Notes under the pieces: generated by a model
Seen by the model: only the letters and a program-made list of their open reading frames with translations
Databases searched by the model: none
Told to the model about the DNA's origin: nothing
Made by a program: the position numbers and the translations under genes
NCBI GenBank assembly: GCA_963755025.1
Contig: CAVWIH010000024.1
Span: 1-64,000, forward strand
DNA: 64,000 bases
Reading direction: 5' to 3'
Source: an uncultured Actinomycetes bacterium
GTDB lineage: Bacteria; Actinomycetota; Thermoleophilia; UBA2241
Part shown: in pieces, positions 14,960 through 64,000 of the stretch
How the letters are laid out: every line of letters starts with the position of its first letter
Numbering within the stretch: position 1 is the stretch's first letter

Positions 14960-16420
14960 ATGACAGACACCGACGGAAACGGCCTTCGCCTTCAGGCCGG
15001 GTTTCTCGGCGACGACGACAAGCAGGCCATCTACGACGCCGCGCTTGAGATCGCCGAAACGGTAGGCATGCGCGTGCACCAGAAAGAAGCGCTCGAGCTG
15101 CTGCGCGCCGCCGGCGCCGAGGTGGTCGGCGACGACCTCGTGAAGCTGCCCCGGCGCCTCGTCGAGCGCGCGCGCTCCACGGCTCCCTCGGTGGTGCCGG
15201 TCTTCGACCGCAACGGCGAGCCCGCCATGCGCCTGGGCGGCCGGCGCAGCTACTTCGGCACCGGCTCCGACCTCATGAACATCTACGACCTCGAGACCGG
15301 CGAGCGGCGCCTGTCGGGGCTCGACGACGTGACCCGCGCGGCCAACCTTTGCGACGGCCTGCCCAACATCGACTTCGTCATGTCGTGCGCCTACCCCAAC
15401 GACGTCGAAGACCCGCACCAGGCCTACGTGGCCGAGTTTCGCGCCATGGTCATGGGCACCACCAAGCCCATGGTCGTGACCGCCGAAGGCGTCGACGACC
15501 TCGAGGTCATGTGGCAGATCGCCTCCGCGGTGCGGGGCGGCGCCCAGGCGCTCGTCGAGAAGCCTTACTTCGTCATGTACGGCCAGCCCAGCAGTCCGCT
15601 CGAGCACCCGCGCGACAGCCTCGACAAGCTGCTCTTCTGCGCCGACAAGGGCATTCCCGCGATCTACTCGCCGGCGCCGCTGGCCGGCGCCACCGCGCCG
15701 ATCACCGTGGCCGGGCACATCGCCCAGGGCACGGCCGAGTCGCTCTTTGGCCTCGTCATGCACCAGCTCCGCAACCCCGGCGCGCCGTTCCTGTTCGGCA
15801 TCGGCCCGGCGGTCCTCGACATGGCCACCGCGCAGTCGTCGTACAACGCTCCCGAATACCTCATGACCTATCTCGGCGCCATCGAGATGGCGCGCTGGCT
15901 CGACCTGCCGAACTGGGGCTACGGCGGCACCAGCGATTCGCAGCTGGTCGACGCGCAGGCCGGCATGGAAGCCGGCGAGCTCACCCTGCTCGCCATGATG
16001 GCCGGCTCCAACTTGAACCACGACGTCGGCTACCTCGACTACGGCATGACCGGCGCGCTCGAGCTCGTCGTGATCGTCGACGAGTTCGTCGCCATGAACC
16101 GCCGTCTGCTCGGCGGCATCACGGTCGACCGCGAGACCCTGGGGCTCGACGTGATCGCCGCGACCGGCCCCGGCGGCGACTTTCTGTCGACCAAGCACAC
16201 CGCCAAGCACATGCGCGCGGCGCAGTGGCGCCCGACGATCATGAACCGCAAGGGCTACGAGCGCTGGACCGAGAGCGACAGCCCCGACCTGCGTGAGGCG
16301 GCGCGCCTGAAGGCGCAGCGCCTACTCGCCACGCACGTCGCACCGCCGGTCGCCGCCGACGTGGCCGCCACGATCGACGCGCTCGTCGAGGGCTTCGCGC
16401 CGGCGGGTCGCCAGGGCTGA
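14960..16420 (+). CDS. MttB-superfamily corrinoid methyltransferase (non-pyrrolysine), copy 1
   Basis: YFGTGSD, GATAPIT.AG, PGAPF, SDSQ..DAQAG.E, GPGGDFL...HT motifs; no in-frame TAG. Confidence 0.9.
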   Translation: MTDTDGNGLRLQAGFLGDDDKQAIYDAALEIAETVGMRVHQKEALELLRAAGAEVVGDDLVKLPRRLVERARSTAPSVVPVFDRNGEPAMRLGGRRSYFGTGSDLMNIYDLETGERRLSGLDDVTRAANLCDGLPNIDFVMSCAYPNDVEDPHQAYVAEFRAMVMGTTKPMVVTAEGVDDLEVMWQIASAVRGGAQALVEKPYFVMYGQPSSPLEHPRDSLDKLLFCADKGIPAIYSPAPLAGATAPITVAGHIAQGTAESLFGLVMHQLRNPGAPFLFGIGPAVLDMATAQSSYNAPEYLMTYLGAIEMARWLDLPNWGYGGTSDSQLVDAQAGMEAGELTLLAMMAGSNLNHDVGYLDYGMTGALELVVIVDEFVAMNRRLLGGITVDRETLGLDVIAATGPGGDFLSTKHTAKHMRAAQWRPTIMNRKGYERWTESDSPDLREAARLKAQRLLATHVAPPVAADVAATIDALVEGFAPAGRQG

Positions 16421-19513: not shown

Positions 19514-20028
19514 GGGGTGTCCCTCCAGACGGCGTTTTCCCGGTGTCATCCTTCCCGTCGGGGCCGAGTCGTAACGAGAAGGTCGACCAGGGGGGCGGAC
19601 GGTGCGGCACGACGCCTGGCGCGGCGCGTCACGCGCGTGGCACACCGCCGCATCGGCGCTGCAGGCACAGAGAGTTGTGTTGCATCGCCGGTCGTCGTAA
19701 CATGCGCGCACACCGTCTCCACGTCGGATTCGGCACACCACGTCACTGTCGTTGTTCAGACGTTCCGGGGGAGAGACCGATGTCTGGCGCAGTACGGTCG
19801 CTCAGAGCCAATCGCCGCAGGGCCCGCGGGCCGGGCGTCCCTCCCTACGTCCTCACGCAAGACAGCACGAGCTTCGACTCCCACGCTCCCTGACGGCCCA
19901 CCGGCCGCCGACTGACACTCGGTCGCCGTCACCGTCACATCCGTTTTCTCTTTCGCGGCGCCGCCCCACCGGGCGCGTCGTCCTAGACGAATCCTTAGGA
20001 GACATGACATGGGAGACAAGCTGACGCT

Positions 20029-20668
20029 ACGGATGCTCTCCTCCGACGAGGTCGGCAAAGTGCGCGAGCAGTGCCTGCACCTGCTGTCCGAGATGGGCAT
20101 GAAGATCGACCACGAAGCCGTCCTGCGCATACTCGCCGACGCCGGCGCGCAGGTCGACTTCGAGACCAGGGTCGTGCGCTTCCCGGCCGCCCTGGTCGAG
20201 TCGGCCATAAAGACGGTCCCCGGCGAGCTCACGGTCAAGGGCGCCGAGGAGCGTCACGACTGCAAGATCCCGCACCCCGACGGCCTGTTCTACTCCTGCA
20301 CGAACATCCAGAGCATGCTGCACCACGACCCCGACACCGGGCGCTTCGTCGACAACACGGCCCAGAAGTACGCCGAGTGGTGTCAGGTCGTCGAGCTCCT
20401 CGACCACGCCGACATCTGCGCCATTCAGACGCCCATGGACGTGCCGGCCGAGAGCGCCGAGGTGCACGCCCTCGCCATCCAGATGCAGAACACGACCAAG
20501 CCGCTCTGGATGCACGCCTTCAGCCGCGAGGCCGTACCCTTCATGTTCGAGCTCATGGTCGCCCGCGTGGGCAGCGTCGAGGCCCTGCGCGAGCGCAGCC
20601 TCGTCATCATCAACCCCGGCACCGTCTCGCCGTTCATCATCAAGGAGATGGACGCCGAGGAGATCACG
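20029..20668 (+). pseudogene. MttB-superfamily methyltransferase, 5' half only (copy 2, truncated)
   Basis: MGDKLTLRML start with AGGAG RBS; EMGMKI, GAQVD, RFP, NTTKP motifs; similarity ends abruptly at about 20668. Confidence 0.8.
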
Positions 20669-23073: not shown

Positions 23074-24453
23074 CTACCTCAGGCAGAACTCGTCGAGCTG
23101 ACGGCGCGTGACGTCGTCCAGGTCGTCGGGCGGCTCGTGGGCGGCGAGGCGGCGCTCCACCTCGGCGCGCGCCGCGGCGCGCACGTCGCCGTCGCCCAGG
23201 GCGCGCCAGCGCTCGGCGCTCTCGCGCACCAGGAACGTGGCGCGGTCGAGGTCACGGCCGTGGCGGCGCGTGTGCCCTTGACCCAGGTAGTCCCCGCCGG
23301 GGCCGACCGCGGCGATCACGTCGGTCGCCAGCGCCTCGGCGTCGGCGGCCGTCGGGGCGGCGGCGAGGCGCAGGGCGCAGATGAGCTCGTCGTCGAGCAC
23401 GTACTTCTCGAGCGACAGCACGTTGAACGAGCTCAGGATGCCGGCGGCCTGAAAGAGAAAGTCGCCGCCGGCGTCGGCCGAGGCCGACAGTCCCATGGTC
23501 GACTCGAGCAGCGCCTGGGCGTCGGGCACGTGCGAGTCGGTGACGGCTCCGCCCGCGCGCACCGGCAGTCCGGCGTGGTGGGCGAGGCTCACCGTCGCAT
23601 TCGCCATCAGGGCGAACTCCGGTGTGCCGAAGTGGGCGGCGCCGGTGCGCATGCTCGACATCGTCGAGACGGCGCCGTAGATGAACGGCGAGCCCTCGCG
23701 CGCGGCCTGCCCCAGCACCAGCGCGGCGAGCACCTCGGCGTGCTGCACGGTCAGCGTGCCGGCCGGCGTCGCCGGGCCGGTCGCGCCGCCCATCACGCAG
23801 GCGGTCACGCAGGCGGGCTGACCGAGAGCGGCCCAGCGCCGCAGGATGCGCGCGGTCTCCACCGACAGCAGCAGCGGAGAGTTGGTGTTGAGCACGATCA
23901 GCGCGCGCGGAGTGTCGGCCCACTGCGCGCCGTAGAGGATCTCGTTCATGGCGATCGCCTCGTCGACGTCGGGCTCGAGCGACGCGGTCCACTCCATCGA
24001 TTTGTCGCTCAGCGTGAGGCGAGCGTGGTCGGAGCGCCGCGTGCGCTGCTCCTCGGGCAGGTCGAGCGGCTCGATGCAGTCGCTGTTGAAGTCGAGGCCC
24101 GGCGACAGATGGCCGAGCTTGACCGTCGCCTGCGCGTCGGCCAGGGTGCCGGGTCGCACCACGGCGCCGTCGAGTACGTAGGCTGGCCCCGAGCCGCTGC
24201 CGAACACCGGCTGACCATCGCCGAAGCGCAGGTCGCGCCCCGGGTTACGCCCGGTCAGGGTGAATGCCCTCGGTGTACCGGAGAGGGCGCGCTCGACGAC
24301 CTCGCGCTCGATGAACACGCGGCGACCGTCGGCACGGGCTCCCACCGTCTTGAGCAGCGCGACGGAGTCGTCGTCCATGACGACCACGCCGGTCTGGGCC
24401 AGCACCCGCAGGGCGGCCTCGTGGATGGCGACGATGTCGGCGGGCGCGAACAT
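23074..24453 (-). CDS. MttB-superfamily methyltransferase (non-pyrrolysine), copy 3; start uncertain (possible GTG near 24594 with an indel)
   Basis: IHEAALRVL, GGATGPAT.AG, GSPFIYG, TDSH.PDAQA, GPGGDYL...HT. Confidence 0.88.
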   Translation of the reverse strand: MFAPADIVAIHEAALRVLAQTGVVVMDDDSVALLKTVGARADGRRVFIEREVVERALSGTPRAFTLTGRNPGRDLRFGDGQPVFGSGSGPAYVLDGAVVRPGTLADAQATVKLGHLSPGLDFNSDCIEPLDLPEEQRTRRSDHARLTLSDKSMEWTASLEPDVDEAIAMNEILYGAQWADTPRALIVLNTNSPLLLSVETARILRRWAALGQPACVTACVMGGATGPATPAGTLTVQHAEVLAALVLGQAAREGSPFIYGAVSTMSSMRTGAAHFGTPEFALMANATVSLAHHAGLPVRAGGAVTDSHVPDAQALLESTMGLSASADAGGDFLFQAAGILSSFNVLSLEKYVLDDELICALRLAAAPTAADAEALATDVIAAVGPGGDYLGQGHTRRHGRDLDRATFLVRESAERWRALGDGDVRAAARAEVERRLAAHEPPDDLDDVTRRQLDEFCLR

Positions 24454-31634: not shown

Positions 31635-33070
31635 CTAGCTGCCGGGCGGTGCCTGCTCGACGATCTGGTCGAGTCGGCGTCGCAATGGTTGGTCGAGTGT
31701 GAAGGTCGGAGGGCTTGCGAGCAACTCCCGAGTGCGCCGCGCCACGCGCTGCTTGAGCGTGGTCGCGCCCTCGGCCTGCCAGCGTTTGTAGACCGACTGG
31801 TCGAGCAGGCTGGACTGGCGGAACGTGCGGTAGCGGCGGCGTGTCAGGGGGCGCGCCAGGTGATTGCCGCCGGGGCCGGCGAGCATGATCTCGTCGAGGG
31901 CCAGGGCCTCGTCGTCGAAGGGCAGTCGTTCGCCGAAGGCGCGGGCGTAGCCCACGAGCTCGTCGCCGAGCACGAGGTGCTCGTACGAGCTCTGCAGCCC
32001 CGACTCGAGGTAGCCGACGTCGTGGATGAGGGTGGCGCGGCAGAGCTCGCCGAGCACGGCGCCCATGGCCGCCTCGGCTGCGGCCTGCTCGTCGTCGAGC
32101 TTGCTGTCGGAGTCGCCCGCGTAGGCCCAGCTCGGCAGGCCGTACCAGCGCGCCAGGTCGATGCACGCCTGGTTGCCCAGGGCCACGCCCGGCGCCCGGT
32201 AGGGCTCGATCATGGTGCGCATGTTGAGCACGCCGACGCCGGCGCCGTACAGGAACGGCGCGCCGGGGTGGGCGAGCTGGTGCACGACGAGGCCGGCCAG
32301 TACCTCGGCGTTGGCCACCACGACGACCGCCGCCAGCGAGGCCGGCGCCGTGGTGCCGGCCGACGGCGACGGCGCCAGCACGGCCGGCACGTCGAGCTCG
32401 CCGCAGACGAGGAGCTTGTCGAGGCAGCCTTCGTCTAACTGCAGGGGCGGCGACGACATGGTAAGGCAGGCGAGGCTGCCGGCCCGGCCGCAGGCGGCCG
32501 CCATCTCGACCATCACACGCAGCGAGGCGCCGCCGAACGGGCTCGAGACGACGATCGGCTTGCGCGTGCCGGCCAGCATGGCGGCGAGCTGAGCCAGGTC
32601 GACGCGCTCGGGGTCGGCGTCGTCGGGCAGACCCATCGACATGACGAAGTCGATGTTGGGGAGGGCTTCGGCGAGCCGGGCGAAGGTCTCGACGTCGGCC
32701 AGACGGGCGCGCCGCCGGCCGTCGTGCTGGTCGGCCACGTACAGGCAGTCGGGCCCGGTGCCGTACCAGGAGAGGCCGTCGCTGAGCTCGCGGTCGAGGC
32801 TGCCGTCGGCGGCGCGACCGTGCAGCACGAAGCCGCGAGGCGCGCTCGCCACCGCCTGGTCGACCAGGTCGCGCGACAGGCGGGCGCGGGTGCCGGAGAC
32901 CTGCGCGCCCGCCCGGCGCAGCAGTTCGAGCGCCCGCGGGTGGCGCACCTCGACGCCGGTCTCGGCGAGCACCCGGCAGGTCGCGTCGTGCACCTTGCGG
33001 CAGGCCGCGTCGTGCCACACCCGCAGTTCGGCGCGCGGTTCGGCGCCCGGGTGTGGCGCCGCCGGGTCAC
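31635..33070 (-). CDS. MttB-superfamily methyltransferase (non-pyrrolysine), copy 4 (probable 1-nt indel just after start)
   Basis: YGTGPDC, IDFVMSMG, PGAPF.YG, SDSK, HDVGYLESG, GPGGNHL; GTG at 33070 overlaps the upstream stop but is out of frame. Confidence 0.9.
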
Positions 33071-34470
33071 GCTTCGCGCTCGCGCCCGGCGGCCTGCATG
33101 ATCTCGGCGACGTTCGCCAGCATCGCGGGGTCGGCCACGAAGGCGCGCGTGGCGCGCAGTTCGGCGACTCTGGCCTTGACCCTGTCGAGCATGGTCAGGC
33201 GCCCGCCCGCGTGCCAGCGGTCGTAGACCGAGTGGTCGAAGAGGTCGTCGTACCAGAAGTCGCGCGAGTGGGCGCGGGTGTACTTGCGAGCCAGAAAGTT
33301 GCCGCCCGGGCCGACCGCGGTGATCTCGCCGACGGCGAGCGCCTCGTCGGTGGTGGGCACGTCTGCCATGAAGGCCTTGGCCCAGCCGATGGCGGCGTTG
33401 CCGAAGACGATCGACTCGCACGAGCTCTGCAGGCCCGACTCGAGGTAGCCCACGTCGTGGATGAGCGTGCCGCGCGGCAGGGCGCCGGCCATGGCGGTGA
33501 GGCCGTACTCGAGGGCGAACTGCTCGTCGAGCGTCTTGGAATCGGACATGGAGGCGTAGTTGAAGCTGGGCAGTCCGTACCAGCGACAGAGGTCTTCTTG
33601 CGCGGCCTGACCGAGCGGGCTCTCGGGGGTGGTGTAGGCGTCGACCGCGGTGCGCATGTCCATGGCGCCCGTGCCCACGCCGAAGACAAAGGGCGCTCCG
33701 GAGCGGATCTGCTGGTGGTAGACGAGGCCGGCGAGCGTTTCGGCGTTGCCCACCACGGCGGTGCCGGCGATCGAGCGCGGCCCCGTGGAGCCGGCGTTGG
33801 GCGCCGCGGCCCAGATGATGGGCACTTCGTGCTCGGCGCAGGCGGCCAGCTTGGTGAGGCCGTCGCGGTCGTGCATGAGCGGCGGCGCCGGCATGGCGTA
33901 GATCATGAAGCTGTCGGGCGCGCCGGCGGCGGCGCACATGTCCTTGACGGCTTTGACGACGCCGCCGTTGCGCGTGGCCACCATGAGCGGCTTGCGCGTG
34001 CCGGCGAGCATGGCGGCCACGGCCGACAGGTCGTCGACGGCCAGCGGCGCGTCTTCGGGCAGGCCCATCGACATGACGAAGTCGAGGTGGGGCAGCTGCT
34101 CGGCGAGCGCCGCCATCTCTTCGATGTCGGCCATGCGCACGCGGCGACGCTCGCCCGAGTCGGGGTCGCGGTAGAACAGGCAGTCCGAGCCGGTGCCGAA
34201 CCAGGTGAGCCCGTTACGCAGTTCGAGGTCCTTGTCGCGGCCGCGCGACCGGACGGTCCACGTCCGGGGGGCGGAAGCTAGGGCCTTGTCGACGACGGCT
34301 GCGTCCAGTCGGACGCGCGTGCCGTCGACCCGGCCGCCGGCCGCGGCGAAGACCTCGAGGGCTGGTGGGTAGCGGACGTCGATGCCGGTCTCGGCCAGCA
34401 CCTGAAGCGTGGCTTGGTGAACGCGACGGCAGTCGTCGTCGCTCCAGACTACGATGCGGGCCGCTGACAT
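33067..34470 (-). CDS. MttB-superfamily methyltransferase (non-pyrrolysine), copy 5
   Basis: FGTGSDC, DFVMSMG, GAPFVFG, SDSK, HDVGYLESG, GPGGNFL; AAAGGGG RBS. Confidence 0.92.
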   Translation of the reverse strand: MSAARIVVWSDDDCRRVHQATLQVLAETGIDVRYPPALEVFAAAGGRVDGTRVRLDAAVVDKALASAPRTWTVRSRGRDKDLELRNGLTWFGTGSDCLFYRDPDSGERRRVRMADIEEMAALAEQLPHLDFVMSMGLPEDAPLAVDDLSAVAAMLAGTRKPLMVATRNGGVVKAVKDMCAAAGAPDSFMIYAMPAPPLMHDRDGLTKLAACAEHEVPIIWAAAPNAGSTGPRSIAGTAVVGNAETLAGLVYHQQIRSGAPFVFGVGTGAMDMRTAVDAYTTPESPLGQAAQEDLCRWYGLPSFNYASMSDSKTLDEQFALEYGLTAMAGALPRGTLIHDVGYLESGLQSSCESIVFGNAAIGWAKAFMADVPTTDEALAVGEITAVGPGGNFLARKYTRAHSRDFWYDDLFDHSVYDRWHAGGRLTMLDRVKARVAELRATRAFVADPAMLANVAEIMQAAGREREA

Positions 34471-54739: not shown

Positions 54740-55687
54740 CTACTTGCCCTGGTTGACCAGCGCCGAGGTCACCGCCAGCGAAGCCTCGTTGTACTTGTTG
54801 AGGATCTGCCCGTAGGTGCCGTCGGTGATGAGCGCCTGCAGCGCCTTCTGCACGGCGTCGCGGAGCTGGGTGTCGGTCTTGGGGACACCGATGCCGATGA
54901 TGCCGTTCGAGAAGGTGGTGGCGATCGTCGGGTCCTGCAGCAGCACGAACGTGTTGCCGTTGTTGAAGGTCTTCACCGTGTAGGCGGCGACCGACTGGTC
55001 GTCCATCTGGGCCTGCGCCTTGCCCGAGGTCACGGCCAGCAGTGCGTCGCTGTCTTGCGGGAACTGCAGGATGGTGAGCTTGGGCTTGCCGGCAGTGGCG
55101 AAGGTCTTCGCGAGCTTCTGCAACTCGCCGACCTGCGCGGTGCCGCTCTGCACGGCGACGGTCTTGCCGGCCAGGTCCTGGATCGAGGTGATGTTGTCGG
55201 GGTTGCCCTTGGGCAGCAGGATGCCGTAGCTGTCGGTGGCGTAGTCGACGAAGTCGAGCTGCTTCTGGCGCGTGGCGTCGTCGAACATCGAGGCCATCAC
55301 CATGTCTTCTTTGCCGGCCAGCAGCGCCGGAATAATGCTGTCGAACACGGTCTGGTCGAAGCTCGCCTTGACGCCGAGCTTGGCGGCGATCGCCTGCGAG
55401 AGGTCGTAGTCGATGCCGGTGGCCTGCTTGCTGCCGACTGCGGTGTACATCTCCCACGGCGGGTAGGGGATGTTGGTGGCCACGCGGATGGTGCCGGCCG
55501 ACCTGATGGCCGCCGGCAGCATGGCGTTCAGCGTCGCGTCGGCGGTGACGCCGCCGCTGGTGGCGCTCGGGCTCGCGCTCGTGCTTGCGCTCGACGAGCT
55601 CGACGGTGAGCTCGACCCGCAGGCGGCCAGAACGGCTAGCACGACGAGCAGTACCGCCGCCAGAACCGCGGCTTTCGCAACCCTCAT
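54740..55687 (-). CDS. Amino-acid ABC solute-binding lipoprotein (family 3)
   Basis: LAAC lipobox, YPPWE, GIDYDL, FD.IIPAL, DL.GK.VAVQSGT, DGTY..I..KY. Confidence 0.92.
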   Translation of the reverse strand: MRVAKAAVLAAVLLVVLAVLAACGSSSPSSSSSASTSASPSATSGGVTADATLNAMLPAAIRSAGTIRVATNIPYPPWEMYTAVGSKQATGIDYDLSQAIAAKLGVKASFDQTVFDSIIPALLAGKEDMVMASMFDDATRQKQLDFVDYATDSYGILLPKGNPDNITSIQDLAGKTVAVQSGTAQVGELQKLAKTFATAGKPKLTILQFPQDSDALLAVTSGKAQAQMDDQSVAAYTVKTFNNGNTFVLLQDPTIATTFSNGIIGIGVPKTDTQLRDAVQKALQALITDGTYGQILNKYNEASLAVTSALVNQGK

Positions 55688-57090
55688 ACTTCCCCCTTGT
55701 GTAGTGGTGACGAGACGGGCGTCAGCGCCGTCGTGACTTGCGTCAGGAACTCGCAGACCCGTTCAGTATCCTCCATGCTCCAGATTCGAGCCAGAATATC
55801 GTGCGCCGCGGGGCCGGGGAGCTGGCCGGCGGTGAGCCAGGCGAACTTGGCGCTCATCTCGTCGGCGGTCCACGCCGGCTCCGGGTACAGCACGTTCTCG
55901 ACGACCCCGCTCGACACCGTGCGGCCGTCGCGCAGCCTGAGCGTGACCACGGCCGCGTCCTTGCCGCGCGGGTCGTTGGCTTCGGAGAGGTAGTAGAGGC
56001 GGGCGAGCTCGTCGGAGACGCGCACCTCGACGCGCTCGCACAGGGCGCGCACCTTGGCGCTCGCCAGGCGCGGCTCGAGGACCTGCCGGGGGCCGACCTC
56101 GCCGTCGACCAGAAAGACGGCGAGCGGCCAGGCCATGTTGAACTGCGCCTCTTCGGTGGTCGTGGGCAGGCGGGTGCCGAGGCGTACGGCGTCGGGGTAG
56201 GTCTCGACCAGGATGTGCTCGACCGACGCCGGGCCGATGCCCTCGCAGGCGATGAGCCCCTCGAGGGCCAGCAGGGCCGGGTGCGTCCAGGCGCACGAGC
56301 AGAAGCGCTTCCAGGTGATGCCGACCGGCAGCAGGTACGACTCTCCCAGGTCGGCGACGAAGTCGTGAAAGGCGTCGAGCTCGAGGCTCGAGGCGACGCC
56401 GGTAAAGCCGCGGGCCGCGAGGTCGGCGGCCATGAGCCCGGTGAGCGCGCCCACGCCGACGCCGTGCTTGACCATGGCCGGGCGGGCCACGTCGCGCATG
56501 ATGGGCAGGTCGGGGGAGTGGTACTCGGCGATGCCCAGGGCGTTGCTCGTCTGCGCGGCGGAGAGGCGCGCCACATTGGCCGCGATGGCAGCGCAGGCCG
56601 GCGCGCCCCACGCGCCGCAGCCGCGAAAGGCGCGCTCGGCCGAGGCCACGGCGGTGAGCTCGTAGTTGAGGCAGCGGCCGGCGCGAAAGGCAATCTCGTA
56701 GCCGACCACGATGGCGGTGAGCAGGTCTTTGCCGCTGTGGGCGCCGCGGTCGGTGAGGGCCAGCGCGGCCGGCACCACCTGGGCGCCGGGGTGGCCCCAG
56801 GTGTAGATGCCGCAGTCATCGACGTCGAGGGCGTTGGCGGCCACGGCGTTGGCAAAGGCCGCGCCCGGCGCCGACGCTCGCGCGCCGTCGTAGACAAGGC
56901 GCGCCTCGGGCGCCGGCCACCAGGCGCCGGCGAGCTCGGCGGCGATGCGTGTCGAGGCCGTCTGGCGGCCGGCGATCATGGCCGCCAGGGTGTCGGCCAG
57001 GCACATCTTGGCGCGCAGCACGACGTCGGCCGGCAGGTCGTCGAACGTGAGACGTGCGGCGAACTCGACGGCCCTCGTCACGGCCGTCAC
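55684..57090 (-). CDS. MmgE/PrpD family protein
   Basis: AAFANA...ALDVDD, HPG..V.PAALA, GYEI, A.RGF.G, K....C..TH, EAQF..P. Confidence 0.88.
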   Translation of the reverse strand: MTAVTRAVEFAARLTFDDLPADVVLRAKMCLADTLAAMIAGRQTASTRIAAELAGAWWPAPEARLVYDGARASAPGAAFANAVAANALDVDDCGIYTWGHPGAQVVPAALALTDRGAHSGKDLLTAIVVGYEIAFRAGRCLNYELTAVASAERAFRGCGAWGAPACAAIAANVARLSAAQTSNALGIAEYHSPDLPIMRDVARPAMVKHGVGVGALTGLMAADLAARGFTGVASSLELDAFHDFVADLGESYLLPVGITWKRFCSCAWTHPALLALEGLIACEGIGPASVEHILVETYPDAVRLGTRLPTTTEEAQFNMAWPLAVFLVDGEVGPRQVLEPRLASAKVRALCERVEVRVSDELARLYYLSEANDPRGKDAAVVTLRLRDGRTVSSGVVENVLYPEPAWTADEMSAKFAWLTAGQLPGPAAHDILARIWSMEDTERVCEFLTQVTTALTPVSSPLHKGEV

Positions 57091-58493
57091 CGTCCGCGTA
57101 GCCGGAGCCTGTCGGCGAGCAGGGCCGCGAGCCGCGCCGCGGCAGCTTCGTCGACCAGCACGGGGCGCGGCCGGGCGAGCAGCTCTTTGGCGGCGGCGCT
57201 GGTGCGCTCGCGCAGCGTCTGCGACCCCTCGGAGCGCCAGCGGTCGTGCATGGTGTGGCTGAAGAGGCTCGTCTCCCAGAAATCGCGGTAGTGGCTGCGC
57301 GTGTAGCGCGTCGCCAGGTGATTGCCGCCGGGACCGGCCGCCTTGATCTCGTCGAGGGCCAGCGCCTCGTCGTCGAACGAGGTCTCGCGCAGAAAGGCGC
57401 GGGCGTAGCCCACCAGCTCGTTGCCCAGCAGGATCGACTCGTACGAGCTCTGCAGGCCCGACTCGAGGTAGCCCACGTCGTGCAGCAGCGTGGCTTTGGA
57501 GAGCGCCCCCAGCAGCGCGGTGAGGGCGGCTTCGGCCGACCACTGTTCGTCGAGCGTCTTCGAGTCGGACACGGCGGCATACGAGAAACTGGGCAGGCCG
57601 TAGTGCCGGGCCATGTCGACGCCCGCCTGGTGGCCCAGGAAACTTTCGGGCACGACGTAGGGGTCGATGCCGGTGCGCATGTCCATGACGGCGACGCCGG
57701 CGCCGTAGACGAAGGGCGCGCCGGCCGCGGTGAGCTGGTGCAGCACGAGGCCGCTCAGCACCTCGGCGTTGCCGACCACGAGGCTGGCCGCTACCGAGCG
57801 CGGCGCGGTGGCGCCGGCGTTGGGCGCCGGCGCGTAGACCAGCGGCACGCCGAGCTCGGCGCAGGCGATCACCTTGGTGAGCGCGTCGCCGTCGTGCATG
57901 AGGGGCGGCGAGGGCATGGCGTAGATGATCACGCTGTCGGCGGCGCCACAGGCGGCGGCCATCGCCTTGATGTCGGCGATCACGTCGCCCTGGCGCGGCG
58001 CCACCACGAGGGGCTTGCCGGTGCCGCGCAGCATGGCGGCGACCTGGGCGAGGTCGTCGACGGCCTGGGGGACGTCGGCCGGCAATCCCATCGACATGAC
58101 GAAGTCGATATTGGCGAGGCGGTCGCAGAAGGCGGCCATGGTCTCGATGTCGGCGGTCGTCGCGCGGCGCCGCTCGGAGGTCTCGGGGTCGCGCACGTAG
58201 AGGCAGTCGGAGCCCGTGCCGAAGTACGACTCGGCCGCGCTCAGCCGCAGCGCGCGGCCGTCGTGGCGGGCGCGCACCGTGGCCGAGCGCGGCGCCGACT
58301 CGAGCGCGGCGCGCACCAGCTCGCGGCTCAGACGCACCCGGCGGCCGGCGACACTGGCGCCGGCCGCCGCCAGCGTCTCGAGGGCGGGCTCGTAGAACAC
58401 GTCGACGCCGACGGTCTCGAGCAGGTCGACGGTCGCGTCGTGGACCCGCCGGCAGTCGCCGTCGTCGAGCAGTGTGAGACTGGCGTGGGCCAT
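57087..58493 (-). CDS. MttB-superfamily methyltransferase (non-pyrrolysine), copy 6
   Basis: YFGTGSDC, IDFVMSMG, GATAP, GAPFVYG, SDSK, HDVGYLESG, GPGGNHL. Confidence 0.92.
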   Translation of the reverse strand: MAHASLTLLDDGDCRRVHDATVDLLETVGVDVFYEPALETLAAAGASVAGRRVRLSRELVRAALESAPRSATVRARHDGRALRLSAAESYFGTGSDCLYVRDPETSERRRATTADIETMAAFCDRLANIDFVMSMGLPADVPQAVDDLAQVAAMLRGTGKPLVVAPRQGDVIADIKAMAAACGAADSVIIYAMPSPPLMHDGDALTKVIACAELGVPLVYAPAPNAGATAPRSVAASLVVGNAEVLSGLVLHQLTAAGAPFVYGAGVAVMDMRTGIDPYVVPESFLGHQAGVDMARHYGLPSFSYAAVSDSKTLDEQWSAEAALTALLGALSKATLLHDVGYLESGLQSSYESILLGNELVGYARAFLRETSFDDEALALDEIKAAGPGGNHLATRYTRSHYRDFWETSLFSHTMHDRWRSEGSQTLRERTSAAAKELLARPRPVLVDEAAAARLAALLADRLRLRGR

Positions 58494-58544
58494 GCGGGGT
58501 TCCCCGATCGTCTGCGCGGCGGGCGTTCAACCGCGGCGCCGTGG

Positions 58545-58641
58545 GTCACTTGCTTTGTGCTACCGTAAACTGGTCGGCCAGACAACAGGCATTGGCTTAA
58601 GCGGAACGAGGCGGCGGACCCTGCGCGTACAAGCAAGTGAC
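58545..58641. promoter_or_regulatory. Pair of inverted 11-bp boxes in divergent promoter region (candidate operators)
   Basis: GTCACTTGCTT (58545-58555) and its exact reverse complement AAGCAAGTGAC (58631-58641). Confidence 0.5.
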
Positions 58642-58668
58642 TCGGGGCGCTCGCGCGAGGAGGCGCGG

Positions 58669-59730
58669 GTGCAGGAGGAGGCGCCGCATGCAGGCGCGAC
58701 GGCTCACCTTCGCGACGAGGCGGCCGCGCTCGACGTGCTGTGGCGCGTGTACTGCGCGCCCGACGGGCGCACGGCGGTCTGCCCGGGCTGCGCCGAGGCG
58801 CGGCGCTTTCATCGCGTCTCGCGGCGCCGCGCCTACGCCTGCGACCGCTGCGGCGCGCACATCTACCCGGCCGCGGCCACGCCCTTCCGCCGCTCGGCGC
58901 TGCCCCTTTCGGACTGGCTCACCGCCACGGCGATCGTCGTCGAGTCGGGCGGCAAGGTGACCCCCGCGCGCCTGGCGCGTGCGCTCGGCGTGGAGTACCG
59001 CACGGGCTGGCGCATGAGGGAACGCCTCACGGGCGCGTTGCGCTCAGACGGCGATGCAGTGGAGCGGCTCGAGGCCTGCGCTCGCGCCTGGCGTAACGCC
59101 GGGGGGTCGCCCGACGAGCCGCTCGTCGACGCCCAGCGGCCCGAGGAGCGCATTCGCGCCGCCGCCTGCCGCGTGCTGGCCGAGCGCGGGTTGAGCTCTA
59201 CCCGTGTGGCCGACATCGCCCGCGAGGCCGGCGTGTCGAGCGCCGCCATCCACTATTACTTCAAGAGCAAAGACGAGGTCCTGCTCTCGGCGCTGCTCTG
59301 GACCGGCGAGCAGTTGCACGCGGGCTTGCGGCGGCTGACCGAAGAGCCGGCCGACGCACTGACCCGGATGCGCCGCCTGCTCGACATGAGCGTGCCCAGC
59401 GACCAGCGCCTGCACGACGAGTACCTGCTCTGGCTCGAGGTCTGGGTACGCGTGCGCAGCCACCCCGACTTTCTCGACGAGTGCATGCGCATGTCGCGCC
59501 AGTGGCACGAGGCCGTGACGACCGTCATCGCCCGGGGCGTCGCCGAAGGCGCCTTTCGCCCGATCGTGCCGCTGGCGGAGCTCTGCGACCGCTACGTCGC
59601 CATGGCGGAGAGCCTCGCCTATCGCGCGGCTCTCGGGTACGAGGGGTTCACCCCCGAACGGTCCCGGCAGATCCTGGCCCGCTTCACGGCCGAGCAGCTG
59701 CAGGTCGCGCCGGGGGCGCTCGACGCGTAG
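58669..59730 (+). CDS. TetR (BetI-like) regulator fused to an IS1595-transposase-like Zn-ribbon/HTH N-terminal domain
   Basis: CPGC...YACDRC..IYP...TPF....LPL..W...LARALGVEYRTGWRM followed by TetR HTH IAREAGVS..IHYYFKSKD and a C-terminal ligand domain. Confidence 0.85.
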   Translation: MQEEAPHAGATAHLRDEAAALDVLWRVYCAPDGRTAVCPGCAEARRFHRVSRRRAYACDRCGAHIYPAAATPFRRSALPLSDWLTATAIVVESGGKVTPARLARALGVEYRTGWRMRERLTGALRSDGDAVERLEACARAWRNAGGSPDEPLVDAQRPEERIRAAACRVLAERGLSSTRVADIAREAGVSSAAIHYYFKSKDEVLLSALLWTGEQLHAGLRRLTEEPADALTRMRRLLDMSVPSDQRLHDEYLLWLEVWVRVRSHPDFLDECMRMSRQWHEAVTTVIARGVAEGAFRPIVPLAELCDRYVAMAESLAYRAALGYEGFTPERSRQILARFTAEQLQVAPGALDA

Positions 59731-62876: not shown

Positions 62877-64000
62877 CAGGCTACTGAAGATCGCCTCGCC
62901 TCAAGCTCTCCGAGAGCCTTCCGGAGGATGACCCTCGCCGCCTCGCGAACCTGCTAGTGTGCGGCCAGGCAGGCGACGGGGAGGGGCTCAGGATGCGCGG
63001 TGACGAGGAGCGGCAGGCGGGGTTCATCGTCATGACCACGCTCGAGGACGTGGTGCCCGACGATCATCCCCTGCGCGCCATCCGCGCCCTGGTCGACGTC
63101 GCCCTTGGGCAGATGAGTCCCGAGCTCGAGACTCTCTACGCCGAGCGCGGTCGCCCCTCGATCGCCCCCGAGTACCTGCTGCGCGCCCAGCTTGCCCAGA
63201 TCCTCTACGCCATCCCCTCCGAGCGCCGCCTGGTCGAACAGCTGCGCTATAACCTCCTGCTGCGCTGGTTCGTGGGCCTGCCCTTCGACGAGCCGGTCTG
63301 GCATCCGACGACCTTCACCAAGAACCGCGACCGCCTGCTCACGAGGGAGGTCGCCGAGGCCTTCTTCTCTGCCGTGCGCTGCCAGGCCGCCTCGCGCAAG
63401 CTGCTCTCCCGCGAGCACTTCTCCGTGGACGGCACGCTCCTTGAGGCGGCCGCCTCCTTGAAGAGCCTGCGGCCCCGCGAGGAGGGTGAAGATGGGGAGC
63501 CGCCGGCCGGCGGCGGCGGGCGCAACCGCAGCGTCGACTTCCACGGCGAGAAGCGCGGCAACGAGACGCACCGCTCGACGACCGACCCCGACTCACGCCT
63601 GGCCAAGAAGGGACGCGGCAAGGAGGCGCGTCTCTGCTACGCCGGCCACAGCCTCACCGAGAACCGCCACGGCCTGATCGTCGACTGCGAGCTGACTGCG
63701 GCCACCGGCAGCTGCGAGCGTGAGGCCGGCCTGCGGCTGCTCGCCCGTCAGCGGCGCCGCTCCGGCCGCGCTCGCCTGAGCGTAGGCGCCGACCGCGGCT
63801 ACGACACGGCCGGCTTCGTCGCCCGGGCTCGCGAGCTGCACATCACCCCGCACGTGGCCGCCAAGGACCGCTTCAGCGCCGTCGACGGCCGCACCACCCG
63901 CCACGCCGGCTACGCCACAAGCCAGCGTCGACGCAAGCTCGTCGAGGAGCCCTTCGGCTGGATGAAGACGGTCGGCGGCCTGCGCAAGCTGCGCCACCGC
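62877..64000. mobile_element. IS5-family insertion sequence (right end outside window)
   Basis: CTAG followed by CAGGCTACTGAAGA candidate left end, then a transposase. Confidence 0.8.
62993..64000 (+). CDS. IS5-family transposase (runs off window; not in ORF track)
   Basis: Manual translation MRGDEERQ...VPDDHPLR...GRPSIAPE...SERRL..YNLLLRWFVG..FTKNRDRL..HFSVDGT..ADRGYD..RKLVEEPFGW. Confidence 0.92.
   Translation, partial: MRGDEERQAGFIVMTTLEDVVPDDHPLRAIRALVDVALGQMSPELETLYAERGRPSIAPEYLLRAQLAQILYAIPSERRLVEQLRYNLLLRWFVGLPFDEPVWHPTTFTKNRDRLLTREVAEAFFSAVRCQAASRKLLSREHFSVDGTLLEAAASLKSLRPREEGEDGEPPAGGGGRNRSVDFHGEKRGNETHRSTTDPDSRLAKKGRGKEARLCYAGHSLTENRHGLIVDCELTAATGSCEREAGLRLLARQRRRSGRARLSVGADRGYDTAGFVARARELHITPHVAAKDRFSAVDGRTTRHAGYATSQRRRKLVEEPFGWMKTVGGLRKLRHR

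Follow-up and report, generated by a model that had tools for sequence, protein, structure and literature searches.

A putative BetI-type TetR regulator with an IS1595 transposase-like head beside MttB-family methyltransferase genes in Actinomycetota

Introduction

Transposase DNA-binding domains that have become transcription factors are textbook material in eukaryotes and are little documented in bacteria. Here we describe a candidate bacterial case: a single gene at positions 58669-59730 (+) of contig CAVWIH010000024.1, from the metagenome-assembled genome (MAG) of an uncultured actinobacterium (GCA_963755025.1; 3.37 Mb, 84% complete), whose product joins an N-terminal head resembling that of IS1595 transposases to a BetI-type TetR protein. 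All coordinates refer to the window, by which we mean the whole 64,000-nt stretch of this contig that was analysed.

Regulators of the TetR family act as homodimers on an operator, from which they are released when a ligand occupies the C-terminal pocket; BetI, one such repressor, controls the bet genes in response to choline. BetI and the protein described here share the C-terminal family PF13977, the BetI model TIGR03384 was the best NCBIfam match (E 2.4e-17), and BetI is tied to quaternary-amine metabolism. Unlike our protein, BetI comprises only about 190-200 residues (model lengths 189-197) and has no N-terminal extension, and the neighbours found here are MttB and PrpD-like genes rather than betAB. 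Because the TIGR03384 score of 63.3 bits lies far below the equivalog cut-off of 201.3, the protein is not a BetI ortholog; the second equivalog model, NF001978, was likewise not reached (54.9 versus 118 bits).

The closest solved relatives of the TetR part are the Saccharomonospora viridis structures 4ICH, 4KWA, 4NEL and 4JNN, which have in common with it the motif P..G.L.DE(Y/W)..WL(E/Q)VW. The full-length 4ICH construct (311 amino acids) also resembles our protein in placing an extra N-terminal domain of DNA-binding type before the TetR part, but this head is of another kind: a close homolog, P0121, carries an XRE-type helix-turn-helix (HTH; PF01381, PF13560) with no zinc ribbon or IS1595 similarity. 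Since only ~193 residues are modelled in 4ICH, no structure shows how such an extra head is seated, and we know of no paper on this regulator.

On the transposase side, IS1595-family (ISXO2-like) enzymes possess the same N-terminal Cys4 ribbon and HTH, whereas the present protein has no DDE domain, is single-copy and syntenic across genera, and is fused to a ligand-binding regulator. A bacterial parallel is offered by TldR, reported to comprise nuclease-dead, RNA-guided repressors derived from TnpB, and thus a transposon-encoded DNA-targeting protein turned transcription factor (bioRxiv 10.1101/2023.11.30.569447). TldR reportedly stems from IS200/IS605 TnpB, is guided by RNA and reuses the whole protein, whereas here only a protein-based DNA-binding front end would have been kept and grafted onto an existing regulator family. 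The fusion architecture is already visible in databases, JGI labelling some members 'AcrR family transcriptional regulator/transposase-like protein'; a literature search found no paper on a fusion of TetR with an IS1595 head, and supplementary domain-architecture tables could list it.

Results

An IS1595-type head precedes a complete BetI-type TetR protein

The original prediction, made from the letters of the window alone, had read this locus as one uninterrupted 353-residue frame with an IS1595-like beginning, a complete TetR/BetI-like protein behind it and no DDE domain, and each of these elements was borne out. Translation of the open reading frame gave a single gene of 353 amino acids plus stop that begins with a GTG, and a Shine-Dalgarno-like GAGGAGG, read from the sequence, lies 5 nt before it (58657-58663, +). 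The GTG at 58669 aligns with the ATG of L085, an 89%-identical ortholog in a genome of the same genus. The same open frame extends upstream to a GTG at 58474, which would give 418 amino acids; this start is disfavoured because it overlaps the divergent MttB gene, whose ATG lies at 58493.

The C-terminal two thirds of the protein are a complete BetI-type TetR, with an HTH at 59140-59292 (+; residues 158-208) and a ligand and dimerisation domain at 59293-59727 (+; residues 209-353). Pfam placed TetR_N (PF00440) on residues 162-207 (E 7.8e-16; 58 bits against a cut-off of 24) and the BetI-type TetR_C_6 (PF13977) on residues 232-344 (E 1.3e-14; 54.7 bits against 27). Ahead of these, Zn_ribbon_IS1595 (PF12760) matched residues 17-63 (E 6.4e-5), and positions 2-54 of the 215-position NCBIfam model for IS1595 transposases, NF033547, matched residues 76-127 (E 5.4e-5). 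The two matches are weak but colinear, so the order is as in a transposase. Pfam found no match to DDE_Tnp_IS1595 (PF12762) in the 353 residues; TetR follows the head instead. The head thus divides into a Cys4 zinc ribbon at 58717-58866 (+; residues 17-66, with C38, C41, C58 and C61 and a preceding helix at 9-28) and an HTH part at 58867-59097 (+; residues 67-143), the latter delimited by NF033547 and by alignment with transposases. Head and TetR are joined by a disordered linker of roughly 15 residues at 59098-59139 (+; residues 144-157), where conservation is low.

We found genuine transposases that share the head. A tblastn search of one genome per species returned loci that match only residues ~31-135, at 31-40% identity, and that encode proteins of ~310 amino acids; in all six of those scanned, Zn_ribbon_IS1595 and DDE_Tnp_IS1595 both exceeded their Pfam cut-offs. 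Seventeen fusion heads and eight transposase N-termini from genome contigs (six of the eight Pfam-scanned, with both IS1595 domains confirmed in those six) align without internal gaps at 27-38% identity. C38, C41, R53, C58, C61, G62, P67, S76 and W83 (P0001 numbering) are invariant in this alignment, and the helix motif Y(K/R)TAWRM is common to fusion and transposase heads.

A phmmer search with residues 1-140 against 1.84 billion representatives gave 2621 matches at E<=1e-3, 440 of them at E<=1e-10, and reached proteins in which Pfam confirmed both the ribbon and DDE_Tnp_IS1595 (P0152, E 3.8e-20; P0169, 1.8e-18; P0264, 4.5e-15). Sorted with purpose-built small hidden Markov models (HMMs), the best 150 matches comprised 23 with head and TetR, 22 with head and DDE, and 105 with the head only. 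Pfam was run on eight of the 22 head and DDE rows and confirmed six over cut-off, P0134 staying below it and P0263 proving wrong. Among 95 head-only rows tested, 80 have a PF12760 match and matches to other families are few; many of these rows are short, possibly fragments (the other ten of the 105 are long proteins, treated apart). As a lead only, 29 of the 30 nearest ESM Atlas clusters carry PF12760, and a word-index search with the same 140 residues found just five close relatives and nothing distant. Judged from these comparisons of sequence, the first ~140 residues share ancestry with the N-terminal region of IS1595 (ISXO2-like) transposases, as the original prediction had it. P0263 (297 amino acids) runs directly from an IS1595 zinc ribbon into the C-terminal half of a chorismate-binding enzyme domain and may be a gene interrupted by an insertion sequence (IS) or a chimeric gene call.

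The fusion is conserved, constrained and not mobile

A full-length search returned 131 relatives at E<=1e-3, of which the best 120 were considered; 105 were aligned with the query to give 106 rows, drawn mainly from Nonomuraea and the actinobacterial family to which the window belongs. Fifteen were excluded: P0002, which is the cluster of the window itself, and 14 rows that were truncated, over-long or of low coverage. Every one of the 106 members matches TetR_N and TetR_C_6, and 76 match PF12760 at E<=1e-3. The frame stays open in these relatives down to 34% identity, and all four head cysteines are retained in 105 of the 106, the exception being N-terminally truncated; L106, A113 and R115 are retained in at least 92%. 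Mean column conservation was 0.70 in the ribbon, 0.57 in the HTH part, 0.35 in the linker, 0.79 in TetR_N and 0.59 in the TetR C-terminal domain. In 13 chosen pairs among 16 loci, the ratio of nonsynonymous to synonymous substitution rates (dN/dS) ranged from 0.06 to 0.50 in the head, 0.01 to 0.12 in TetR_N, 0.11 to 0.43 in the TetR C-terminal domain and 0.08 to 1.45 in the linker, so that constraint on the head is about equal to that on the ligand domain. The fusion is old, present as one copy in the genome and under purifying selection, neither unique nor unconstrained, and it combines several features of domestication: transposase-domain homology, loss of the catalytic part, syntenic orthologs and purifying selection.

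The composition of the head is host-like, since its GC content at third codon positions (GC3), 0.907, is close to that of the TetR part (0.93) and of the neighbours (0.93-0.97), in agreement with the host-like codon usage claimed earlier. Only one copy of the head and no PF12762 match were found in the whole 84%-complete assembly. Together with the host-like GC3, this indicates that the gene is not an active mobile element. The sole inverted repeat found lies inside the promoter region and does not flank the gene.

Distribution suggests a probable origin of the head in a transposase gene

We built trees of the head to examine how the architectures relate; all of them are unrooted and show homology and few origins, not direction. 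With FastTree (174 heads), a branch with support 92 separated all 40 TetR-fused heads, accompanied by 12 short rows, one unclassified row and no DDE row, from all 30 DDE rows. With IQ-TREE (64 full-length rows), the DDE rows again lay on one side of a branch (support 93), and a single TetR group was not rejected (approximately unbiased test, p 0.73). Carriers of the head that bear a DDE domain come from Acidobacteriota, a delta-proteobacterial MAG and an actinobacterial MAG; among records naming an organism, the TetR fusion occurs only in Actinomycetota. Because the DDE-bearing carriers span several phyla while the TetR fusion is rare and, among named organisms, restricted to Actinomycetota, an IS1595-type transposase gene stripped of its catalytic part is the most likely source of the head. 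The exaptation proposed in the original prediction is to this extent supported, with the direction from transposase to regulator read from the distribution.

A tree of the TetR part (62 rows, three having been dropped for a missing or short TetR match) contained a clade of 56 (support 91) that holds all 50 fused rows. The same clade holds five unfused rows and L014, which has a different head, and these six fall within a starred clade of 46. It follows that loss or replacement of the head occurred at least ~3 times, or else that it was gained more than once. The head of L014 (L014:5635-6618), inside the fused clade, matches HTH_28/HTH_23/HTH_29, which are common in IS630/IS3-type transposases. 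P0121, whose XRE-type HTH families are precomputed assignments, stands outside the fused clade and aligns end to end with the 311-residue 4ICH construct. If L014 and P0121/4ICH are counted along with the IS1595-type fusions, these BetI-type TetRs acquired an extra head on at least three occasions.

The IS1595-type head is also fused to other partners among the phmmer matches (P0126, P0177, P0153, P0162, P0170, P0204, P0144 and P0223), namely NHL-repeat propellers, STAND/NB-ARC-type NTPases (one with a MalT-like TPR) and an HTH_11-WYL-WCX regulator. Four STAND-fused heads form a well-supported group of their own in the trees.

Structure models

An AlphaFold2 model of the full-length protein (106-row alignment) reached a predicted local distance difference test score (pLDDT) of 92.1 and a predicted template modelling score (pTM) of 0.61; the head alone (25 rows) reached 93.2 and 0.86. 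In the model the N-terminal helix (9-28) is followed by ribbon strands at 35-37, 44-49 and 56-58 and by head helices at 80-92, 99-106, 110-124 and 128-143, after which a disordered stretch (pLDDT <50 at 149-155) leads into the TetR fold. The best Foldseek matches of the TetR part were S. viridis 4NEL, 4ICH, 4KWA and 4JNN (E ~1e-8; TM 0.85-0.87 over the target), at 31-32% identity and a sequence E of 1e-23. Of these entries, 4KWA is titled a choline complex, 4NEL contains an N,N-dimethyl compound and 4JNN benzamidine. The PDB held no significant match to the head by sequence (best E 0.086, chance level) or by fold, and no solved structure represents it.

Genomic context and distribution of the fusion

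Upstream of the regulator, and divergent from it, Pfam identified three genes in a putative operon: an MttB-family methyltransferase gene at 57087-58493 (-; 468 amino acids; PF06253, E 5.2e-83; without in-frame stop), an MmgE/PrpD-family gene at 55684-57090 (-; 468 amino acids; PF03972 and PF19305), which overlaps the MttB stop, and last a gene for a family-3 solute-binding lipoprotein (SBP) at 54740-55687 (-; 315 amino acids; PF00497). The regulator thus occupies the classic divergent position that had been ascribed to it.

To learn how widely this arrangement holds, we compared 23 fusion loci: that of the window, ten from the one-per-species scan and 12 from the scan of related genomes. MttB is adjacent in 12 of them and a PrpD-like gene in six, the window having both; one or both adjoin the fusion gene in 17, usually divergently, which bears out the earlier tie to a methyltransferase operon. 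The PrpD-like gene is the divergent neighbour in the Nonomuraea loci and in L086, and in Nonomuraea the SBP gene is conserved with it.

Matches at E<=1e-20 came from 17 of 61 related genomes, and in 11, including the window's own, one match spanned both parts of the protein; all 11 belong to the window's own actinobacterial family. Two more, divergent fusions were found (L096 and L097). An even sample of 400 other genomes of the phylum, with five candidates scored per genome, yielded no full-length match and only two matches, both to TetR alone. Named carriers are Nonomuraea species, one 'Mycobacterium sp.' record and Thermoleophilia/Actinomycetes MAGs, and the family is patchy, common in two distant actinobacterial groups and rare elsewhere.

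Among sequencing runs, metagenome contigs from soil, peat and wetland carry this stretch or relatives of it. In one metatranscriptome run, short contigs, 90-99% alike, cover portions of mttB, the intergenic region and the regulator's 3' part, and gaps in the cover carry no meaning. These contigs appear to derive from a relative, and they are not proof of transcription, because DNA may be present in such a library.

The window has five more MttB-family matches (15002-16387, 20024-20650, 23077-24453, 31656-33035 and 33151-34461), and only the 57087-58493 copy adjoins the fusion regulator. An IS5/IS1182-type transposase gene (DUF772 and DDE_Tnp_1), unrelated to IS1595, starts at 62957 (+) and runs off the window end at 64000. 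Across the assembly there are 34 MttB-family matches, five with exactly one in-frame TAG, and 17 B12-binding-domain matches. PylD and the PylS C-terminal domain score over curated cut-offs close together on contig C10, beside a gene of corrinoid-protein size. The pyrrolysine and TAG loci lie outside the window in its own genome (G000 C10:70114-76259; C14:383544-384962; C14:392337-393638; C16:23860-25281; C34:134667-136073; C21:4604-5737), and together they resemble a pyrrolysine apparatus accompanied by TAG-bearing methyltransferase genes in a soil actinobacterial MAG.

Operator candidates in the promoter region

The 175-bp intergenic region (58494-58668) contains a 20-nt inverted repeat, 85% complementary, whose arms stand 75 nt apart. 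The left arm (58536-58555) has the core GTCACTTGCTT at 58545-58555, and the right arm (58631-58650) has the same core on the minus strand at 58631-58641. This exact 11-mer occurs at two sites in the 3.37-Mb assembly, both of them here and inverted relative to one another, and the inner core ACTTGCTTTGT/ACAAGCAAGT is conserved in ortholog L085, where the flanks diverge. With one mismatch allowed, a genome search gave 8 further sites versus 17 for the reversed control, and therefore no wider regulon is visible. Folded as RNA, the inverted repeat reaches -69.5 kcal/mol (z -3.5; 2 of 200 shuffles fold as well). Rfam gave no family match in 58300-58800, the one ortholog compared showed no covariation in the inverted repeat, and a scan of 58400-58760 for consensus promoters and terminators found none.

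Upstream of related fusion genes, other lineages arrange a CAAG core in different ways. Nonomuraea promoters show the arrangement GTCAAGG-N9-CCTTGTA, and six Thermoleophilia-type loci (L008, L009, L010, L012, L087 and L088) carry the CAAG-core motifs GTCAAGCA, CACAAGT and CCAAGTAA in direct orientation, spaced 29-30 nt, with three or four per promoter region. These repeats could equally be operator sites on one helix face or simply promoter geometry, and we leave them unexplained because they partly overlap -35-like or promoter-like hexamers. In k-mer enrichment over 17 upstream regions, CTTGACA, the -35 consensus, occurred in 12 (null maximum 9) and CAAGTA in 13, which equals its null maximum; no firm shared operator emerged from these regions. 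In five related IS1595 loci, a search for terminal inverted repeats to set beside the operator candidate found no convincing ends.

Discussion

The best explanation of this locus is probably a local TetR-family regulator with two kinds of DNA-binding head that responds to a quaternary amine and sits beside methyl-transfer genes. In such a scheme, a homodimer would bind the 175 bp that separate its own gene from the divergent mttB-prpD-like-SBP operon, repressing the operon and probably itself. A small cation of quaternary-amine character, resembling choline or betaine, would occupy the C-terminal pocket and release the TetR heads. That the ligand is probably a quaternary amine or similar cation is suggested by the choline-bound nearest structure, the DE(Y/W)..WL(E/Q)VW motif and the MttB neighbour; it would probably be what the MttB enzyme acts on, or a relative of that substrate. 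Glycine betaine, carnitine, gamma-butyrobetaine and choline are demethylated by non-pyrrolysine MttB-family proteins that have been characterised (including PMC12478193). The two tethered IS1595-type heads are predicted still to bind DNA and would most likely add more distant contacts, for example to the two GTCACTTGCTT arms, which could raise affinity and specificity or loop the promoter.

A broader version of this scheme seems to us possible but doubtful. The IS1595 front end would then be a reusable DNA-targeting module that Actinomycetota have grafted onto TetR proteins, STAND NTPases, WYL regulators and NHL propellers. It would give the TetR dimer a second DNA specificity on flexible tethers, with which two distant sites are held (the inverted 11-mers 75 nt apart here, the CAAG-core repeats at 29-30 nt in sister lineages) and the shared promoter is looped. 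If true, a paired-end architecture in the style of transposases would have been reused for ligand-controlled regulation.

Several observations weigh against the two-headed, amine-responsive regulator or the origin proposed for its head. In the promoter region, the one close ortholog does not preserve the outer part of the right arm, different lineages show different candidate operator motifs, and the inverted repeat of the window could instead be an RNA hairpin. As to the neighbourhood, six of the 23 fusion loci have no MttB or PrpD-like gene within the flank (most of these flanks being only 1.5 kb, and one lying at a contig edge), two of the six, both divergent members, adjoin an S-adenosylmethionine (SAM) methyltransferase or a C11 peptidase instead, and the related loci are kin rather than independent, so that counts of them overstate independence. 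The head of the window protein scores 23.3 bits with PF12760, below the Pfam cut-off of 25.4, and a Foldseek search of the head model against the PDB gave no match at E<=0.001 (best E 0.56). Finally, DDE and TetR-fused heads occupy separate sides of the trees, the latter not nested inside transposases, and a careful 62-row tree needs two changes for the TetR label and recovers a single TetR group in 1% of bootstrap trees.

This last point leaves room for the reverse direction, which we regard as unlikely: the ribbon and HTH head would be an old cellular module of TetR, STAND, WYL and NHL proteins, and IS1595 transposases would share it or have captured it. Besides the lack of nesting in unrooted trees, each architecture forms nearly its own group, the five labels needing four changes, the minimum possible, and short stand-alone PF12760 proteins are many. 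However, many of these short proteins group with DDE proteins and may be fragments, and the distribution points the other way, with DDE carriers in Acidobacteriota, a delta-proteobacterial and an actinobacterial MAG and the TetR fusion, among named organisms, confined to Actinomycetota and absent from the five candidates scored in each of the 400 sampled genomes. Were the reverse true, 'domesticated transposase' would be a misnomer, and the protein would work the same.

Somewhat less likely still is a protein of this architecture whose head has ceased to bind DNA and serves as a zinc or redox sensor or as an oligomerising or partner-binding module while the TetR HTH alone contacts the operator. 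Cys4 ribbons can be redox or metal sensors or interaction modules, the same head occurs on proteins other than classical transcription factors (STAND NTPases and NHL propellers), and no significant structural match puts the head on DNA. Against this, the stretch best conserved with transposases is the predicted recognition helix that carries Y(K/R)TAWRM (residues 110-124), and transposases are expected to bind their ends through this region. The weak fold matches of the head (E >=0.56, TM <=0.34), although not evidence in themselves, are all HTH DNA-binding regulators.

It is very improbable that the protein regulates or inhibits IS1595 transposition as a truncated transposase on IS ends, with its metabolic neighbours incidental. 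Truncated transposases that retain only DNA binding do inhibit transposition in other IS families, such as Tn5 Inh and IS1 InsA. Here, however, a complete ligand-binding TetR is attached, the MttB/PrpD synteny holds across genera, the candidate operator 11-mer occurs only in the gene's own promoter region, and the assembly has neither a DDE_Tnp_IS1595 match nor a second copy of the head, although assemblies of 84% completeness can miss repeats. Least probable of all is a gene-calling artefact or relic in which translation covers the TetR part alone, the 150 codons ahead of it being what is left of a dead transposase that happens to be in frame: the PF12760 score under cut-off and the near-neutral linker (dN/dS 1.45 in the closest pair) fit it, but the frame kept open across the 106 relatives, the cysteines in 105 of them, the low dN/dS of the head, the Shine-Dalgarno site and conserved start at the head's beginning and the confident model make TetR-only translation unlikely.

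As a two-headed, amine-responsive regulator, the fusion would offer a clean, conserved and testable bacterial case of a transposase DNA-binding domain at work in regulation, for which cultured carriers exist in Nonomuraea strains. It indicates that one-component regulators can gain a second DNA-binding head, an event that this TetR clade has apparently seen at least three times, each time with a different head, and such repeated gain bears on the evolution of operator specificity and on promoter looping. For comparison, aerobic marine bacteria have a working glycine betaine methyltransferase system that depends on cobalamin (PMC12478193). In aerobic soil Actinomycetota, the family described here is a lead to regulators of non-pyrrolysine MttB-family methyltransferases and, because the substrates of these enzymes are mostly unknown, the ligand of the regulator could reveal them.

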